From assembly GCA_016214655.1 (NCBI GenBank), contig JACROC010000004.1, forward strand, positions 26,084 through 90,083: DNA of 64,000 nucleotides, written 5' to 3'. Position numbers and translations under genes: made by a program. This document shows positions 17,360 through 24,968 of the stretch, piece after piece (position 1 is the stretch's first letter; each line of letters starts with the position of its first letter). Below the pieces are notes generated by a model. It was not told the DNA's origin, did no database searches, and worked only from the letters and a program-made list of their open reading frames with translations. The stretch is from Candidatus Harrisonbacteria bacterium. Its GTDB lineage: Bacteria > Patescibacteriota > Minisyncoccia > UBA6257 > 02-FULL-45-10c.

Positions 17360-17444
17360 GCCGCCGTGGTGGAATTGGCAGACACGCACGACTCAAAATC
17401 GTGTGCTGAAAAGCATGTCGGTTCGACTCCGACCGGCGGCACCA
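17360..17444 (+). tRNA. tRNA-Leu(CAA), type II; CCA encoded
   Basis: GCCGCCGTGGTGGAATTGGCAGACACGCACGACTCAAAATCGTG...CGGCGGCACCA has anticodon loop CTCAAAA and a long variable arm. Confidence 0.85.
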
Positions 17445-17454
17445 AAATATTAAA

Positions 17455-17479
17455 ACCTGCTGTAAAGCAGGTTTTTTTA
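17455..17479 (+). terminator. rho-independent terminator after tRNA-Leu(CAA)
   Basis: CCTGCTGTAAAGCAGG followed by TTTTTTT. Confidence 0.55.
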
Positions 17480-18943
17480 TTAAGGTCTAAATTCAAAATT
17501 ACCAGGAAAACGGTGTCGCTTAGCATTCGGGTCATACGGCCCAAAGACTGTATGGGAAGAAAAGGGATTATTGATGCCGCCAAAATAAATAACTTTGGTT
17601 ATAGTCTTAGCGCTCTGCCAATCAAAATCCTGCAATTGCCTGCGTAAATTATTATCTCTCAGGCAGCGCCGGATAAACTCTCCCCTGCTCCTGGCCCGAG
17701 TTTGCGGAGCGTTAACAACCATTTCTTGAACCATTTTCGGATCAACCAAATGCTTTATCAAACCCCTCTCATTCAGCAGAGCAAATATGCTCTTCCGGGG
17801 AGAAGCGCTGATATTGTGGTATTCCATATTAATTTTAAATGCCTCCGAACTGTTAAGACCAAAATGCCATTTCTTCATTTGGTTTTCCAATAAAAACCAT
17901 TTGGTTGCCCAATCCAATTCGCCAACTAATTTTCTGACCGCCTTCGCTTTAAGTAATTCCAAAATCCTTTCCCATTCCTCCAAGCACTTTTTTTCCGCTA
18001 CTGATAATGGCTTAAGCTGTCTGGCGGCTCTCAGAAATAAATAATTATATTCAACCGCAGATATGGAGCGAGACTGGAGCTGAAAACGATAATCTAAATC
18101 AAATTTAGTATTAAAGCTATGAATATCAGCTATCGGCCGCTTCAGGGTCAGGCGATGTGGCAAGCGCCAGCCTTCTTCGGCTAAGCGCAAAACTAAATGA
18201 GTTATGGTGTCCACCAGCCAAGTCTGTAATTCACAGCGAGTCGCGTCTCGGGAAATCAAATGCATCCGGCTTAAACCACAGGAAGAATCCATCAACGGCT
18301 CTTCCCTGGTATTAATTATTGCGCGCTCCGCAGTCGTACATGAACCGGCCAGCCGCTCTAAGTGATTAGCGCGCTGGGAAAAACAATAAACAAATTTTCC
18401 TTCGTACACCTCATAGATATGGCCGTTTCCGCTCAAAGGCAGCGTAGCCGGTATAAAATTCAACAATAACCGTATAACCTCTTTCCGTTTCTCGATTGCA
18501 TAGGAATAATTGTGGTGGCTGCCATAGGTAACCTCTATAGAATTTCCTATTTCATCTTCACCAGGACCGACATTATTCTTGTAGAAATTAATTACTTTCA
18601 GGTGCCGGCTGTTAACAACCATTTGCGACGCGCGAAGCAGAATTAATTCGGTAGCCTTCTCTTGTAAAATACCGTCCAATGATCCGGCCAGATGTTCCGC
18701 GCCCGCTGCCTCTAATGACTGCTGATCCTTGTAAATTCTGGAACCGTTAGAAAGCCAATAATTGAAATCGGATTTAAAAGCCAAAGCCGGCGCAACTAAG
18801 GGAATTCTGGTAAGAACGGCGTCAATAATTGAATCTCTCCATTCCGAACGAACTTCATCATCATCCCGACAACTCCGCGGAATGGGAAAAATCGTAAGCC
18901 CATATTCTTGTTCTCGTCCGCAAAGCCGCTCTGGCATCGACAT
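17480..18943 (-). CDS. Pup-ligase family protein (PafA/Dop-like carboxylate-amine ligase), divergent paralog 1
   Basis: It contains the GxExEYG N-terminal motif (LCGREQEYGL) plus FYKNNVGPGE, SHHNYSY, INTREEPLMDSSCGLSRMHLISRDATRCE and PPQTRARSRGEFI. It shares roughly 45-50 percent identity with the adjacent paralog by eye. The ORF runs to 19063, but the likely start is ATG 18943 (MSMPERL). Confidence 0.7.
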   Translation of the reverse strand: MSMPERLCGREQEYGLTIFPIPRSCRDDDEVRSEWRDSIIDAVLTRIPLVAPALAFKSDFNYWLSNGSRIYKDQQSLEAAGAEHLAGSLDGILQEKATELILLRASQMVVNSRHLKVINFYKNNVGPGEDEIGNSIEVTYGSHHNYSYAIEKRKEVIRLLLNFIPATLPLSGNGHIYEVYEGKFVYCFSQRANHLERLAGSCTTAERAIINTREEPLMDSSCGLSRMHLISRDATRCELQTWLVDTITHLVLRLAEEGWRLPHRLTLKRPIADIHSFNTKFDLDYRFQLQSRSISAVEYNYLFLRAARQLKPLSVAEKKCLEEWERILELLKAKAVRKLVGELDWATKWFLLENQMKKWHFGLNSSEAFKINMEYHNISASPRKSIFALLNERGLIKHLVDPKMVQEMVVNAPQTRARSRGEFIRRCLRDNNLRRQLQDFDWQSAKTITKVIYFGGINNPFSSHTVFGPYDPNAKRHRFPGNFEFRP

Positions 18944-19023: not shown

Positions 19024-20571
19024 TTACTGCGGGGTATCCTTTTTTAAATTCAAATCCCGACAAAGCTTATCAATAGAAGAACTAGTGGGAACAAACGGGT
19101 TATCCTTTTCGCCAAAATAAATCATATCTTGATAATTATTGAATTTGGCCCCGTCCCAATTGAAACGAGTCACTTGATACCAAAGGCGGGAATTAGTTTT
19201 TATTAATTCCAAAAGATCGCCGCGGCATCTTGCGCGAGTTGGCGGCGGAACCAACATCGTCCGTACAATTTCCTCTTCATCTACTAAATGCTGAATATAT
19301 CCCCGCTCCTCTAATCTCGCATACCAGCTTAGATTCGGATCGTTGCTGATATTATGGTACTCCATGTCAATAAGCCAAGCTTGCGGATCGGATAATTCAA
19401 ATCCCTCCCTTTTCATCTGTCTTCGAAGCAATTTCCATTTGGTAACCCAATCCAGCTTACCGACTAATTTATTAAAGGCCCGAGCCATTAACAATTCCAA
19501 AATTTCCTCCCAAGCCTCCAGAGCTTTCTTTTCATTATCAGAAAGCGGGCTTAATTGTTTCGCCAGATCTAAAAACAAATAATTATATTCAAATAAATCC
19601 TTTTTACCGGACAAAAGAGCCAGATAGGGGACGGCGAGGCGTACCTGATAATCAAAATTGGCTTCCAGTGAAAAATTAATTGCTTCTAATTCTGCTCTCG
19701 GATCCTTTAAATCCGGCGGCAGAACTTTTTCGTCTTCAACCTCCTCGGCTATGCGCAAAACCAAATGCATAATAGCATCCACCAACCAAGTTTGGAATTC
19801 GCAGCGCGTAGCATCATGAGAAATAATATGCAAACGACTCAACCCGCAAGACAGATCCATCAATGGCTCATCACGAGTATTGACGATCCCCCTGTCTCCT
19901 CTCAAAGTACCGGATGATTTAAGAAGATTAATATGGGGTACGCGCTGAGAAAGAGTAAAACAAAACTGATTGCCAACGCCCAAACGATGGCTGCGATAAA
20001 CATGTCCGCTGCCGGTCAAAGGAAGACTGGCCGGAATAAAATTAGTCAGCAAAGCATACACCCTTTCCCTTTTGTTTGTCTGGTAAGAATAATTATGGTG
20101 ACTGGCATAACTCACTTCGTCATAGATATCGCCGCGCTCCCCTGGGCCGACGTTATTCTTAAATAGTGAAAATTCTTGCAATCCTCTCTCTGCGATCACT
20201 TTTTCTAAAGCCCTGTTCAGAATCCTTTCAGAGGCTTTTTCTTGCAAAACACCATCCAGAGAACACGGCTCATATTCGGCGCTAGCAAATTCCAGAATTG
20301 AACCAAGGTCAATATATGTTAAACCTCCATTTCTAAGCCACAAGCGATGATTATTAGATCTGGCGTCAAAAAAATAAGCACTTTCCGATTGCATTATCTT
20401 GAAAATAATTTCACTTACAAACTCGGCTCGCCATTGCTCGCGTAAAGCTTGGACACTCTGCACAAACTCCTGCTGCGTAAGAACAGTTAGGGGCGGGAAG
20501 GGAGGGGGCATAAAAACTGGAATAATCTTCATAGCATATTCCTGCTCGCGGCCCACAAGACGATTCTGCAT
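19024..20571 (-). CDS. Pup-ligase family protein (PafA/Dop-like), divergent paralog 2
   Basis: 515 aa. Motifs: MQNRLVGREQEYAM, LFKNNVGPGE, SHHNYSY, VNTRDEPLMDLSCGLSRLHIISHDATRCE, PPPTRARCRGDLL. The HPEY segment of canonical PafA is replaced by ILEFASAEYEP. Confidence 0.7.
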   Translation of the reverse strand: MQNRLVGREQEYAMKIIPVFMPPPFPPLTVLTQQEFVQSVQALREQWRAEFVSEIIFKIMQSESAYFFDARSNNHRLWLRNGGLTYIDLGSILEFASAEYEPCSLDGVLQEKASERILNRALEKVIAERGLQEFSLFKNNVGPGERGDIYDEVSYASHHNYSYQTNKRERVYALLTNFIPASLPLTGSGHVYRSHRLGVGNQFCFTLSQRVPHINLLKSSGTLRGDRGIVNTRDEPLMDLSCGLSRLHIISHDATRCEFQTWLVDAIMHLVLRIAEEVEDEKVLPPDLKDPRAELEAINFSLEANFDYQVRLAVPYLALLSGKKDLFEYNYLFLDLAKQLSPLSDNEKKALEAWEEILELLMARAFNKLVGKLDWVTKWKLLRRQMKREGFELSDPQAWLIDMEYHNISNDPNLSWYARLEERGYIQHLVDEEEIVRTMLVPPPTRARCRGDLLELIKTNSRLWYQVTRFNWDGAKFNNYQDMIYFGEKDNPFVPTSSSIDKLCRDLNLKKDTPQ

Positions 20572-20635
20572 TTTCTTTCTTATTTTATGTCAAACAACTT
20601 ATACCCACTATACGAGCCAGCCAGAAAAAATACAA

Positions 20636-20667
20636 TAGAATCAAAAGGGTCCGACTGGGTCGGACCG
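20636..20667 (-). terminator. hairpin plus U-run just downstream of the Pup-like gene (possible attenuator or terminator)
   Basis: On the minus strand, GGTCCGACCCAGTCGGACC is followed by CTTTTGATT. Confidence 0.35.
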
Positions 20668-20675
20668 ATATATAA

Positions 20676-20873
20676 TTATTCTCCACTCTTCTGCCGGTAT
20701 TCCTGATTAAGCTCTTGCGGATCGCGGTTGCGCGCATTCTTCAGAATATTGCCAAGCTCTTCATCCGCTTCCAAATCCTTCTCTTCTTCCTCTTCTTCCT
20801 CTTCGCCATTTTTCTTCTTCTTTTTAGGCTCTTCCTTCTTTGGCGGTTTCTCCGGCGGCTTTTGCTCGCTCAT
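20676..20873 (-). CDS. pup: Pup-like prokaryotic ubiquitin-like protein with C-terminal QKSGE
   Basis: 65 aa. The N-terminal half is Lys/Glu-rich and looks disordered. The C-terminus ELNQEYRQKSGE resembles the mycobacterial Pup C-terminus (YVQKGGQ) and ends in Glu. The gene lies between PafA/Dop-family genes on the same strand. Confidence 0.65.
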   Translation of the reverse strand: MSEQKPPEKPPKKEEPKKKKKNGEEEEEEEEKDLEADEELGNILKNARNRDPQELNQEYRQKSGE

Positions 20874-20891: not shown

Positions 20892-22361
20892 TTAAAGTCC
20901 TAAAATGGATTGTAGCACAACGGCCGTAGAATTATCAAGTACCGGATCCATCAGATCAACGGAAATATCCACTGAATCATTTACCCTAATCTTAATCCCA
21001 GACCAATCAACTTCCACCACCCGATCGCCTAATTTCTTCAAAAGTCCGCTTCTCAAAAACGCACGAGTATTAGCCGGCGCATCAAATTTAGCCGCCAGAA
21101 TCTGTTCATCCGTTACCAGCCGCTTGATTTTGCCAGATTTTACCAATTCGTAATAAAGGCCGTCACTAGCCACCTTCCGGAACAGCTTACTAAAGCCCAG
21201 TGCGGCATCCGGCTGCAATTTTGTAAGCGCCCAAGTGGTAGTCCAATCTAAATATCCGAAAGTTTTCATTGGATCCTTCTCTAGAATCTCCGACAACTCT
21301 AAAGCTTTTGCGACCGCCTGAGTATGCTGATCGGTCATTGGATGCACATTCAAATATTTTCCGGCAGCCAATAAGTACTTTCTCAATATTTCTAGACCAG
21401 TCATTCGCTGACCACCCTCTAAATCAATCATTTCTTTGAATCTGAGGTCGCGCGAGATTTTGATAATTGCTTCAACCGGTTTTTTAGGCAGCAACACTTC
21501 TTCCAAAAACCGGTCTTCAATCATGGCCAGAACTACTTGAGTCAAGGCAATCCGCAAAAAATCCGCGTATTCGCACATCAAGGCATCAGTAGAAATATCA
21601 TGAAGGCGGAAATATTTTTTAGCCGTAGCATGCGGTTCGTCACGCAAATTGAAAATCGGGCGGCTTTCCATGGTATTAATAGCCACCAATCGTTCAAAAA
21701 AATCTGCTCGCTGAGATAACTGGAAAGCGCAAGATGGGCGGTCATTTTCACTGCCGACTTTACCGCCTCCGGTCAAAATAATTCTGCTGATTTGGAATGG
21801 TAAATAATGTTGCAATAAATAAAGAAAGTTATCTTTCTCGGAAACCAAATCCCGGCTTAAAAGAATATTGAGATGGGAACCATAACTCTTGCCGGCGCCA
21901 TCGCTGTTATTTTTATGAAGCACAATTCTGTCCTTGCGGCTGGCCAGTTGGTTTAAATAAAGCCGCAAAGCATCCATCATCACCAATTCGCTGGCTTTGT
22001 CATGAACGACCAAATCCAACGGATTCAGGCACTCTGGGGTGGAATATTCCGGATGATCAACGTCCATATAAAATCGAGCGCCATTGCCCAAAAATCCGTC
22101 CAATTCCGGACCGATATTATCTGCTAGGACGTCATGAGCCGTTTCTTTAAAAAGACCGGCTACATCTTCCAAGGTAATAACGCTGGTTCGGCGGGCTTCT
22201 TTAGATTTATCATGACGGACTGCTTTTTGATATTTCAAAAATTCTTTTACAAAACTGCGCAAAATCTCCCGATATTCATCTCCCAACAATTGATTCCCGC
22301 CTTGGTCAAGAACTGAAAAACCGAATTCATTTTCTATCCCGCAAACCTTAGAGATAGCCAT
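20892..22361 (-). CDS. Pup ligase/deamidase family protein (PafA/Dop), canonical-like
   Basis: 489 aa. Strong matches to PafA signature blocks: CGIENEFGF, GNGARFYMDVDHPEYSTPEC, LHKNNSDGAGKSYGSHLN, FQLSQRADFF, SRPIFNLRDEPHATAKKYFRLHDISTDALMCEY. It sits immediately upstream of pup, as dop does in actinobacteria. Confidence 0.8.
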   Translation of the reverse strand: MAISKVCGIENEFGFSVLDQGGNQLLGDEYREILRSFVKEFLKYQKAVRHDKSKEARRTSVITLEDVAGLFKETAHDVLADNIGPELDGFLGNGARFYMDVDHPEYSTPECLNPLDLVVHDKASELVMMDALRLYLNQLASRKDRIVLHKNNSDGAGKSYGSHLNILLSRDLVSEKDNFLYLLQHYLPFQISRIILTGGGKVGSENDRPSCAFQLSQRADFFERLVAINTMESRPIFNLRDEPHATAKKYFRLHDISTDALMCEYADFLRIALTQVVLAMIEDRFLEEVLLPKKPVEAIIKISRDLRFKEMIDLEGGQRMTGLEILRKYLLAAGKYLNVHPMTDQHTQAVAKALELSEILEKDPMKTFGYLDWTTTWALTKLQPDAALGFSKLFRKVASDGLYYELVKSGKIKRLVTDEQILAAKFDAPANTRAFLRSGLLKKLGDRVVEVDWSGIKIRVNDSVDISVDLMDPVLDNSTAVVLQSILGL

Positions 22362-22457: not shown

Positions 22458-24281
22458 TTAACCAGCAAATCCTGTAATCGGCTTATTCACAGCTTCCTTG
22501 AAATTGTTTTTCAATCTTTCGACCTCTTCATCAATAGCCATGAAAAAATCCTTCTTTTTGATATCGGCAACCGGGTCCTTTTCACCAGCTACTTTTGATC
22601 TATGATATCTTTCTAATGCAATCATTTTGGCGCCATCAACGATACTCTTAATAATCGCACCGGAAAGATAGTTCTTCAACATCACATCTTCATTGCCCTT
22701 TACAGTTTCAACCCGGAAAATATTATTAACTGTCAATTCGGTGCCATCGCTAAATCTGATTTTAACTTCTCTGCCAGTATACGCCAATCGCTTAGCAATA
22801 AGATCGATGAAATGCTCGCGAATTTTTTCTAAATCACCACTCAGAACTACCTCCTCCTCTTCACCACTACCAAAAGAATCAATATATTTGTAAATATGGT
22901 TTTCAAGATATTTTCTAGAAAACGGGAGGTCGGCAGCAAGATAAATCCGGAGGATTTCTTTGACATCCCGCATGGTTTTAGGACGAGGAATAAAAACATC
23001 AACACCTAATCTTCCGGGACGTAAAATTGCCTTGTCCACTAAGTCCTTACGATTAGTCGCGGCCAAGACCAAGATATTTCCCAGGGGATCCACTCCATCA
23101 AGAATTTGATTAAACTGACCAATGTCGGTCGCCATCCAAGGCTCATGCTCCGAGGTGTCACGGCTCCGAAAAAGCGAGTCGATTTCATCTATGAAAACTA
23201 CCACTAGCGCTCCTTCAGCTGCCTTTTCTTTGGCTCTAGCAAAAACTTCCCGGATTTTTCTGGCAGTTTCGCCTACATATTTATGGGTAAGTTCTGCTCC
23301 GCCAATATTCATGAAAAAGCAAGGCAAACCCAACGATCGTCCGAGGTCCGCACCGATGGCTTTAGCGCAAAGAGTTTTTCCGCAGCCCTCTGGCCCATGA
23401 AGAATCAAGCCCTTGGGCATATCCTTTCCCTTAAAAACCTTCACGTAAACTTCTCTCTCTTTAAATGGCAAAAGGATGCGCTGGATTTTCTTAACCGATT
23501 TGGAAAGGCCGCCAACCTGATCCCAAGTGATATCGCTGACATTCTGCAGATCTAAAAAGTGCTCTGACTCTTCGGTTTTGGGTAAAACCCGAATCAGCAC
23601 CCCGCCGCAATTCAAAAGCCGGTCTCCGTCTTTTAATCTCGTTTCTTTCAAATCTGGACTGATATAGCATTGCTGTATCTCGTTATGAGAACTCTCGACT
23701 TCTGCCAATTCCGGATTAATATATGACCGGAAAGTAACAGCCGAGCCCCAATTCCAATATAGCTTAGTCACTTCCACGACCTGACTCTTCCCGTTAACAC
23801 CCACTTCCCAGCCGGATTTTAAATCAGTAGCCTTCGTATTTGGTATTGCCAGCGGCAATTTTCTAAACTGTCCTTCAATTAATACATCAACCTCTTCCAG
23901 TTTGCCGCCGGGATGAGGCCGGACGAATATGCCGTAAGTAAGAGGCGGAGAAGCTAATTGCTCCCGCCATTTCTTACGCCAATTCTCGACCTCCTCCAGC
24001 GCCTTTTTATAACGCTCTTTTTCCTTGGCGCACTCTACCAGTCTCTTCAACAGCCTCTGAATCTCCTCTGATAGCTGGACCCGCTCATGGCGAAGCTGTT
24101 GATTCTCCTCCGCCTTCGCCTCAAGACGCTTGATTCTTTCGTGTGCATCTTGTAATTGATTTAGTAATTCTTTCTCTTGGTGATTCTCCTTTTGGGCGTT
24201 TCCACTTTTCCCTTTTCGTAAACGCTCGAGAAAAACACTTAAATCAGACATTTTCCATTTCATATCCAAATCCCTTATCAA
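22458..24281 (-). CDS. ARC/Mpa-like AAA+ ATPase (N-terminal coiled coil, OB-like region, single AAA module)
   Basis: 607 aa. The N-terminal coiled coil reads ELLNQLQDAHERIKRLEAKAEENQQLRHERVQLSEEIQRLLKRL. It is followed by a beta-rich OB-like region, Walker A GPEGCGKT and Walker B VVFIDEIDS. The C-terminus is ...KPITGFAG, with no GQYL/HbYX tail. Confidence 0.75.
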   Translation of the reverse strand: MIRDLDMKWKMSDLSVFLERLRKGKSGNAQKENHQEKELLNQLQDAHERIKRLEAKAEENQQLRHERVQLSEEIQRLLKRLVECAKEKERYKKALEEVENWRKKWREQLASPPLTYGIFVRPHPGGKLEEVDVLIEGQFRKLPLAIPNTKATDLKSGWEVGVNGKSQVVEVTKLYWNWGSAVTFRSYINPELAEVESSHNEIQQCYISPDLKETRLKDGDRLLNCGGVLIRVLPKTEESEHFLDLQNVSDITWDQVGGLSKSVKKIQRILLPFKEREVYVKVFKGKDMPKGLILHGPEGCGKTLCAKAIGADLGRSLGLPCFFMNIGGAELTHKYVGETARKIREVFARAKEKAAEGALVVVFIDEIDSLFRSRDTSEHEPWMATDIGQFNQILDGVDPLGNILVLAATNRKDLVDKAILRPGRLGVDVFIPRPKTMRDVKEILRIYLAADLPFSRKYLENHIYKYIDSFGSGEEEEVVLSGDLEKIREHFIDLIAKRLAYTGREVKIRFSDGTELTVNNIFRVETVKGNEDVMLKNYLSGAIIKSIVDGAKMIALERYHRSKVAGEKDPVADIKKKDFFMAIDEEVERLKNNFKEAVNKPITGFAG

Positions 24282-24359: not shown

Positions 24360-24968
24360 TTAATCAGCGCTTGCTCTGCAGCCGGGACACAGACATCCCT
24401 CAGCCTTTTTCCATCGCGGATACCTATAAAGGCCGCCGGATAAACAAGTTAGATAGGTGTGAAATCCGGATCTGCCGGTAAAATGCAGATCCACTTCCCG
24501 CATCTTCCAAGTATCGCCTCCTGGCCAAGCCTGTAGGGGATTATTTAATGAATACCAGACTCCGTCACGCTCTTGCCAGCGATCAGAAACCCAGCCTAAA
24601 GTGTAACGATAGCTGCCAGGAACCAACTCAAATTCAACTTCTTTGCAGCTTTTAAGCTGTTCGTAAGATTCGATTAAATTTCCAATTACCGGAAAAAGCT
24701 TTAATATCCCAAACACAAAATTCCTAAGCAGATCAATTCGTAACAAGAATCCGGTTAAATAAAGAAAAGCTGCAACCAGAGATACATTAAATAAAAAATT
24801 AAGGAAAAGGTTTCCGGTAAAAGAAAATCCTATTTTCTCAAAAAGCCCCCAGGCCAACACCCAAAGATAGTATAAAACATAGGCAAGTATAGAAAAGATT
24901 GCCCAAAAAAGAAGCCCTTCTTTCTGAATCGCCGACTGCCTAGCCCAAAATCCCTTCTTCTCTCCCAT
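24360..24968 (-). CDS. hypothetical polytopic membrane protein
   Basis: 202 aa with several TM helices. No family recognised. Confidence 0.4.
   Translation of the reverse strand: MGEKKGFWARQSAIQKEGLLFWAIFSILAYVLYYLWVLAWGLFEKIGFSFTGNLFLNFLFNVSLVAAFLYLTGFLLRIDLLRNFVFGILKLFPVIGNLIESYEQLKSCKEVEFELVPGSYRYTLGWVSDRWQERDGVWYSLNNPLQAWPGGDTWKMREVDLHFTGRSGFHTYLTCLSGGLYRYPRWKKAEGCLCPGCRASAD

Follow-up and report, generated by a model that had tools for sequence, protein, structure and literature searches.

A divergent Pup-like small protein and its neighboring enzyme genes in Candidatus Harrisonbacteria

What kind of protein is encoded by a short open reading frame (ORF) that lies between enzyme genes of the Pup-ligase family in a bacterium of the candidate phyla radiation (CPR)? 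The ORF is located at 20676..20873 on the minus strand of a 64,000-nucleotide stretch of Candidatus Harrisonbacteria DNA (contig JACROC010000004.1, positions 26,084 to 90,083; hereafter the window) and is publicly annotated as 'hypothetical protein HZB99_01215'. It begins with ATG and encodes 65 amino acids followed by a stop codon (MSEQKPPEKPPKKEEPKKKKKNGEEEEEEEEKDLEADEELGNILKNARNRDPQELNQEYRQKSGE). The protein is laid out as an N-terminal Lys block, a Glu block and a C-terminal helix-forming region with the end YRQKSGE. We consider it likely that this protein is a prokaryotic ubiquitin-like tag, a divergent member of the Pup/UBact superfamily that is confined to a small clade of Parcubacteria-type CPR bacteria. 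A sequence-only reading of the window had proposed a Pup-family protein at exactly these coordinates, and the proposal is supported by the gene context, by close orthologues that end in YRQKGGQ and by a profile match with a clean shuffle control.

Such an ORF could be a chance open frame in the spacer between two enzyme genes, in which the real element is a terminator or a regulatory RNA. It is short and of low complexity, containing 12 Lys, 21 Asp plus Glu and one run of eight Glu, it is annotated merely as hypothetical, and it has no match to a curated protein family. However, comparison with the orthologue from locus L001 (75% identical) gave proportions of synonymous (pS) and nonsynonymous (pN) differences of 0.81 and 0.13, respectively (pN/pS of 0.16), with 10, 5 and 33 differences at codon positions 1, 2 and 3. 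We give pN and pS in place of the synonymous substitution rate, since the synonymous sites are saturated in this comparison. The constraint extends over the low-complexity N-terminal half of the protein as well as its C-terminal half. The same slot holds an orthologous small ORF in every related locus, with length and motif kept despite saturated synonymous divergence, and the ORF was called independently by gene callers in several sources. An Rfam search returned no family overlapping the small ORF, which rules out a known RNA element at this position. The small ORF is translated and selected as a protein. The chance-frame explanation is effectively refuted by the conservation data, and its probability is negligible. 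The Lys- and Glu-rich character that the sequence-only reading had assigned to the N-terminal half is present in the protein and kept across the family; the dozen or so Lys that it placed in the string KPPEKPPKKEEPKKKKK amount to 9 in that string and 12 in the whole protein.

The related loci and two large protein searches together yielded approximately 15 orthologues of the small protein, all in relatives of this CPR lineage. The family members are 57–84 residues long, all are unannotated and none has a Pfam domain. They share an architecture in which a Lys-rich block is followed by an Asp/Glu-rich block, a short amphipathic stretch (D-E-L-G-x-I-L) and a tail of the form [FY]-[RK]-Q-[KR]-x-G-[EQ]. 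A word-indexed homologue search with the single small protein found 2 proteins only, and a metagenome scan recovered 2 short contigs only. HMMER, run exhaustively over 1.84 billion representatives with a 2-sequence profile, gave 3 matches only; the family is small and fast-diverging. The genome contig scan, anchored on the Dop-like protein encoded next to the small ORF, gave, among the matches listed, distant Dop loci at 38% identity or less and no CPR locus. Those distant loci served as the source of the Pup controls used below.

Comparison of the tails within the family places the unusual ending of the window protein in context. The last three residues are SGE in the window protein, P0002, P0126 and L089, SGQ in P0125, PGQ in P0123 and P0127, PGE in P0129, P0131 and P0132, GGQ in P0124 and P0128, GGE in P0130 and P0133, and DCE in L090 and P0134. 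The N-terminus of P0124 is nearly identical to that of the window protein, but its end is YRQKGGQ, to be compared with YVQKGGQ in Mycobacterium tuberculosis Pup. All members terminate in Glu or Gln, and the Gln at position -5 is invariant in a 10-sequence alignment (xQ[KRQ]xx[EQ]). Because the orthologue tails vary at position -3 (Gly, Ser, Pro or Asp) and include canonical Pup endings, the SGE ending of the window protein is one state of a relaxed position and not an isolated oddity. The sequence-only reading had put this Ser at the penultimate Gly; it is in fact at the antepenultimate (-3) Gly of GGQ/GGE, with Gly still present at -2 and Glu at the end. Two independent sequences, L090 (9596-9868) and P0134, share the end ...[FY]PQKDCE, in which Asp occupies -3 and Cys occupies -2, and these members have a longer N-terminus that is rich in Arg, Lys and Glu (84 residues).

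Is this family homologous to Pup? Curated models gave little indication of it. Pfam and NCBIfam scans of the full small protein returned no match, and NCBIfam still gave none after removal of the low-complexity half. The Pfam Pup model (PF05639) matched neither the window protein nor any CPR relative at E ≤ 10, as full-length sequences or as C-terminal halves, whereas canonical Pup controls scored 65–80 bits on the same model, even as a 31-residue fragment. A hidden Markov model (HMM) built from 17 canonical Pups, collected beside Dop in the comparator loci, gave the window protein 2.8 bits. Alignment of profiles was more informative. A 10-sequence CPR profile aligned by hhalign to the 17-sequence Pup profile with a probability of 94.4%, an E-value of 8.9e-8 and a score of 38.8. 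The alignment joins CPR residues 37–65 to Pup 35–66, with both C-termini in register. Since both families are acidic, we ran column shuffles as a control, which scored 8.5 ± 2 with a maximum of 20.2, and 0 of 400 reached the real score. Thus, at the profile level, these comparisons show homology to the C-terminal region of Pup that binds PafA and Mpa. Similarity to a Pup HMM had been set beforehand as the refuting test of the sequence-only reading; it failed at the level of single-sequence searches and was found at the profile–profile level.

The Pfam UBact model (PF20513) is the sole curated model touched by the family. UBact was described by Lehmann et al. in 2017 (BBRC 483:946). Candidate phyla including Parcubacteria are reportedly among its carriers, and it was reportedly found together with proteasome genes. 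The small protein might then be a member of the UBact branch (Nitrospirae, other Gram-negative and candidate phyla) that the 2017 report already covers. The R-Q-K-S-G-E tail of the window protein fits what we take to be the UBact C-terminal signature, [RK]-[ST]-G-E. The window protein matches PF20513 with 14.9 bits (E-value of 0.024), seen only once the low-complexity N-terminal half is removed, and its two nearest relatives reach 18.6 bits (P0002) and 15.4 bits (P0125). However, all of these scores, which come from comparison with the PF20513 model, are under the gathering cutoff of 27.8. The matches always fall at model positions 21–43 of 43, such that only the last 23 positions, at the C-terminal end of the model, align. 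The remaining family members have no PF20513 match and several members end in the Pup-type GGQ or GGE. We regard UBact membership as possible but doubtful. The preferred reading, a divergent tag of its own clade, places the family within the Pup/UBact superfamily and, on these model scores, apparently in neither curated family as now defined.

As in Pup systems, the small ORF lies beside genes of the dop, pafA and mpa/arc types. On the minus strand, the cluster order is an Mpa/ARC-like AAA+ ATPase (607 aa, 22458..24281), a Dop-like enzyme of the Pup-ligase family (enzyme 1, 489 aa, 20892..22361; PF03136, 341 bits), the small ORF, and two Pup_ligase genes, which encode divergent PafA-like paralogue 1 (enzyme 2, 515 aa, 19024..20571; PF03136, 209 bits) and paralogue 2 (enzyme 3, ~487 aa from a Met at 18943, 17480..18943; PF03136, 230 bits). 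Both downstream ligase paralogues had been noted in the sequence-only reading. A gap of 18 nucleotides separates the Dop-like stop codon from the ATG of the small ORF. The cluster order is kept in 6 further loci, whose Dop-like proteins are 47–57% identical to that of the window, within a wider synteny of rpoBC-S6-SSB-PAP2-ATPase-enzyme 1-small ORF-enzyme 2-enzyme 3-parB-relA/spoT-topA. Among these loci, L091 has other genes upstream of the ATPase and L090 stops just past the small ORF. Wherever the sequence extends far enough (the window, L084, L086, L088, L089 and L091), the tandem divergent PafA-like pair comes after the tag gene. Searches by tblastn with prcA and prcB, which covered 64 kb of this genome, found no proteasome gene in the window or in 8 CPR loci (best E-value of 0.33), whereas the control loci, taken from Actinomycetota, Nitrospirota and Poribacteria, have prcB and prcA directly next in order (E ≤ 1e-59). 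The GC content stays at an even 0.39–0.47 throughout the cluster and the sequence on either side, which rules out recent horizontal acquisition of the cluster.

We compared enzymes 1–3 using the discriminators between Dop and PafA given by Hecht et al. (PMC7947786). Enzyme 1 scores 297.6 bits against TIGR03688 Dop (cutoff of 492.3) and 242 bits against TIGR03686 PafA, both below the equivalog cutoffs, and 225 and 157 bits against the Dop and PafA structures in the PDB, respectively. It has an insertion of Dop-loop length before the catalytic Asp, the motif D-xx-HPEYSTPEC without the extra residue of PafA, and SQRADFFE. In a crude neighbor-joining tree, its clade lies near the split between Dop and PafA. 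Enzyme 1 is thus Dop-like and is predicted to act as a depupylase and, in relatives with a Gln-ending tag, also as a deamidase.

Enzymes 2 and 3 are more divergent and form a deep separate clade in the same tree. Enzyme 2 scores approximately 100–109 bits to the PafA and Dop structures and 60 bits to the neighboring enzyme 1, and enzyme 3 has structural matches of 96–111 bits. Against TIGR03686 PafA, they reach 158 and 172 bits, respectively, relative to a cutoff of 551. The two enzymes score 56–88 bits to enzyme 1, relative to 172–273 bits to enzyme 1 for Dop and PafA of other phyla. Both have the PafA-type SQRxxH[IL], which in enzyme 2 reads SQRVPHI and is accompanied by D-LGS as in PafA, and both keep GhExE, the catalytic Asp and most nucleotide and Mg ligands. 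They retain 59 of the 92 reference-invariant columns, relative to 75 of 92 in enzyme 1. On these features, enzyme 2 is a candidate ligase for the tag. The public annotation of enzymes 1 and 2 is 'PafA2 family protein'. The mechanical ORF of enzyme 3 begins at a TTG at 19063 and overlaps the enzyme 2 gene by 40 nucleotides; the start is likely the Met at 18943, because MSMPERLCGREQEYGL aligns with the N-termini of the other paralogues (MQNRLVGREQEYAM). In L084 and L086, the two PafA-like copies are each other's nearest neighbors in the crude tree, a hint that the pair has undergone repeated duplication or gene conversion. Some third-position copies (L089 and L091) have degenerate GhExE or RDE motifs.

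The ATPase (22458-24281) scores 283 bits against TIGR03689 pup_AAA (cutoff of 505) and has a weak OB-domain match (PF17758). It aligns to Mpa (7px9) over residues 59–454 with 194 bits, spanning the coiled coil, OB and AAA regions. We predict that it recognizes and unfolds tagged proteins. Its C-terminus (22458-22550) is ...KPITGFAG and not GQYL. The CPR ATPases (L084–L091) share a conserved ...K-P-[ILM]-x-G-F near the end, followed by 0–7 residues (longer in L091), which is neither GQYL nor HbYX; a Nitrospirales comparator ATPase ends in ...GHYF. The conserved P-x-x-G-F could be a docking motif for another partner.

In Pup systems, the terminal Glu is the residue that is conjugated, and a Pup ending in Gln requires prior deamidation. 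The tag of the window ends in Glu and therefore no deamidation would be needed, as the sequence-only reading had held and as follows from the established mechanism. By the profile alignment, the C-terminal ~29 residues are homologous to the segment with which Pup binds to PafA/Dop, folding on them, and to the Mpa coiled coil. The steps that follow are proposed. One or both PafA-like enzymes would use ATP to phosphorylate the side-chain (gamma) carboxylate of the terminal Glu and join the tag to target lysines, a step suggested by the retained catalytic residues and the mechanism of the family. Tag removal would be the main task of the Dop-like enzyme in this bacterium; where a relative has a tag that ends in Gln, the enzyme would also deamidate that tag first. 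The Mpa/ARC-like ATPase would bind the helical region of the tag and thread or unfold the target starting from the disordered N-terminal Lys/Glu block. Since no proteasome is adjacent and the ATPase lacks GQYL, the tagged protein may end up unfolded or remodelled, or may be passed to a protease whose gene lies elsewhere. That the tag lysines carry poly-Pup chains, or that the Lys and Glu blocks strengthen engagement of the ATPase pore, is speculation.

Several points weigh against assignment of the small protein as a tag, whose conjugates are so far a prediction. No curated model recognizes it, with no match to PF05639 or NCBIfam, a PF20513 score below the cutoff and 2.8 bits on our own Pup HMM. 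Both families are acidic and short, and the similarity is carried by ~29 columns. The -3 position, and in the two DCE-tailed members also the -2 position, depart from the Gly-Gly of Pup; the C-terminal Gly-Gly-Gln/Glu of Pup is absent from the window protein (Ser-Gly-Glu) and found in P0124, P0128, P0130 and P0133. Finally, the His and Tyr of HPEY and the His of EPHA, invariant in the reference Dop and PafA proteins, are lost from enzymes 2 and 3, so that the activity of these enzymes is not assured.

Some of the same observations would suit a small protein that is a highly charged, disordered, non-covalent partner of the ATPase or of the ligase-family enzymes, such as an adaptor, a regulator or a nucleic-acid-binding protein, in which the Pup-like tail is present by descent and no longer conjugated. 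The conserved Lys-then-Glu block has no counterpart in the canonical Pups that we collected, the tail is relaxed at -3 and -2, to the extent of DCE, otherwise invariant residues are lost from the PafA-like enzymes and no proteasome is nearby. However, the constant terminal Glu or Gln and the Gln at -5, invariant in the 10-sequence alignment, are required by the conjugation chemistry and have no easy explanation without it. GhExE, the catalytic Asp and the nucleotide/Mg ligands are present in each of the three enzymes, and orthologues ending in Gln make sense only with a cycle of deamidase and ligase. Thus, we consider a non-covalent role improbable.

We return to the preferred reading, a conjugated tag, and compare it with known systems. 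Actinobacterial Pup (PF05639) is ~60–70 residues long and predicted to be disordered, and the window protein, with 65 residues, is of similar size and likewise predicted to be disordered. The C-terminal regions align at the profile level and share the end Q-[KR]-x-G-[QE] (YVQKGGQ in Pup, YRQKSGE here). As with Pup, the gene directly follows a Dop-like gene and lies near genes for an Mpa/ARC-like ATPase and PafA-like enzymes, and some orthologues end exactly in GGQ or GGE. Unlike Pup, the window protein does not match the Pup HMM, it has Ser (Pro or Asp in relatives) for Gly at -3 and an N-terminal half made up of a Lys block and then a Glu block, its gene is not followed by prcB and prcA, and the system has two very divergent PafA-like paralogues in place of one PafA and an ATPase without the GQYL tail. 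It resembles UBact as a Pup homologue outside Actinobacteria, with an end of the Ser/Thr-Gly-Glu type, a terminal Glu and a weak match to the C-terminal 23 positions of the UBact model. It differs from UBact in scoring below the family cutoff, in belonging to a clade that mixes GGQ/GGE with SGE/PGE tails, in a poly-Lys/poly-Glu N-terminal half that lies outside the PF20513 model, and in that no 20S proteasome gene was found in the window or the 8 CPR loci.

A precedent for such an arrangement is found in Corynebacterium, which has Pup, PafA, Dop and ARC without a 20S proteasome, and in which the Pup, PafA and Dop sequences are canonical. The components predicted here, namely a tag, a ligase, a depupylase and an ARC-type unfoldase without an adjacent 20S proteasome, are alike in kind, and Corynebacterium offers a precedent for unfolding or remodelling over degradation. 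Here, unlike in Corynebacterium, no component reaches its equivalog cutoff, and the ligase is present as two divergent copies. The clade is a new branch of the known Pup/UBact system and not a new kind of system. It stands apart in its tail, in the layout of the N-terminus, in its set of enzymes and in the apparent lack of a proteasome. A fuller proposal joins these features into a CPR-specific, proteasome-independent tagging system, with a zwitterionic tag of relaxed Gly-Gly, two specialized divergent PafA-like ligases, a Dop-like remover and an ARC-like unfoldase as reader with P-x-x-G-F, forming a third branch beside Pup and UBact. We put this combination forward tentatively, as one that may well not hold in full. 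If it is true, the many lysines of the tag might allow tag-on-tag chains, and the location of the cluster beside core housekeeping genes, in ultra-small bacteria that depend on a host, would point to a major regulator of the proteome.

Pupylation has been studied almost wholly in Actinobacteria, and this clade puts the tag in CPR/Patescibacteria. Among the papers that we searched, none joined pupylation with Patescibacteria. Hecht et al. (2020) reported Dop/PafA homologues in several phyla, CPR lineages not among them (PMC7947786). The minimal genomes of CPR bacteria make each retained pathway informative, and here the cluster lies between rpoBC/S6/SSB and parB/relA/topA with the synteny kept. 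The natural variants at -3 (Ser, Pro or Asp) and at -2 (Cys) allow one to ask what PafA and Dop require of Gly-Gly. With two divergent PafA-like enzymes and apparently no proteasome, the clade also lends itself to testing whether Pup-like tags can act without degradation or through another protease. The Pfam and NCBIfam models overlook the family, leaving its members as 'hypothetical', and a new profile would mend the annotation of these genomes.

How is the tag gene transcribed relative to its enzymes? With a gap of 18 nucleotides, the dop-like gene and the tag gene appear tightly coupled. An intrinsic-terminator-like hairpin (20639..20666, minus strand) begins 10 nucleotides past the stop codon of the small ORF, with the stem at 20666-20648 followed by CTTTTGATT. 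The stem, GGTCCGAC-CCA-GTCGGACC, has 8 base pairs, 6 of them G-C, and a folding energy of -13.9 kcal/mol (z = -2.97 relative to shuffles). A GC-rich hairpin and T-run follow the small ORF in all 8 of the related loci, with differing stem sequences, and this recurrence with different stems supports a real terminator. The hairpin and U-run that the sequence-only reading had placed directly downstream are thus confirmed; its interpretation as attenuation fares less well. The spacer before the first PafA-like gene (20572..20638, minus strand) contains a promoter-like element, with a -10-like TATAGT at 20612-20607 and GTTTGACA at 20595-20588. Alignment of the spacers of 7 loci shows an invariant TATA.T with TTTGC ~17 nucleotides upstream, and AGATAxTAG and TTTTTGAYA downstream, before the ribosome-binding site. 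From this conservation, the spacer probably contains a dedicated promoter and a further element of the 5' untranslated region, and the PafA-like genes probably have their own promoter, separate from the tag gene. Because this conserved promoter-like element follows the hairpin, we favor a terminator with re-initiation, a reading that accounts for the layout no less well than attenuation does. Tag and ligase levels would be uncoupled under both, which was the functional point of the sequence-only reading. Terminator-like hairpins are also found after the ATPase, enzyme 2 and enzyme 3 genes, and one (19033-19018) lies across the enzyme 2 stop codon. The hairpin behind the ATPase gene may separate its transcript from that of the dop-like and tag genes.

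Comparator loci from Nitrospirota differ in layout. The Nitrospirales locus L075 (5096-9874) has mpa-dop and then prcB-prcA directly, without a small ORF between. In 8 Nitrospirota loci (L034, L065, L071, L073, L074, L075, L077 and L079) we found no plausible ORF ending in GG[QE] or [RK][ST]GE within ~7 kb, and their Pup/UBact gene must therefore lie elsewhere.

At the upstream edge of the cluster in the window, a 202-residue ORF (24360-24968, minus strand) lies between the PAP2 gene and the ATPase gene. It is annotated as hypothetical (HZB99_01230), looks hydrophobic by sequence and has no Pfam or NCBIfam match, and no gene is called at this place in L084, L086 and L088–L090, where PAP2-ATPase is kept. 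At the other edge, a tRNA-Leu(CAA) gene (17360-17444, plus strand) is located directly past the last PafA-like gene on the opposite strand. Between the two, at 17452-17475, is a 10-bp palindromic hairpin with T-runs on both strands, which is likely a bidirectional terminator.

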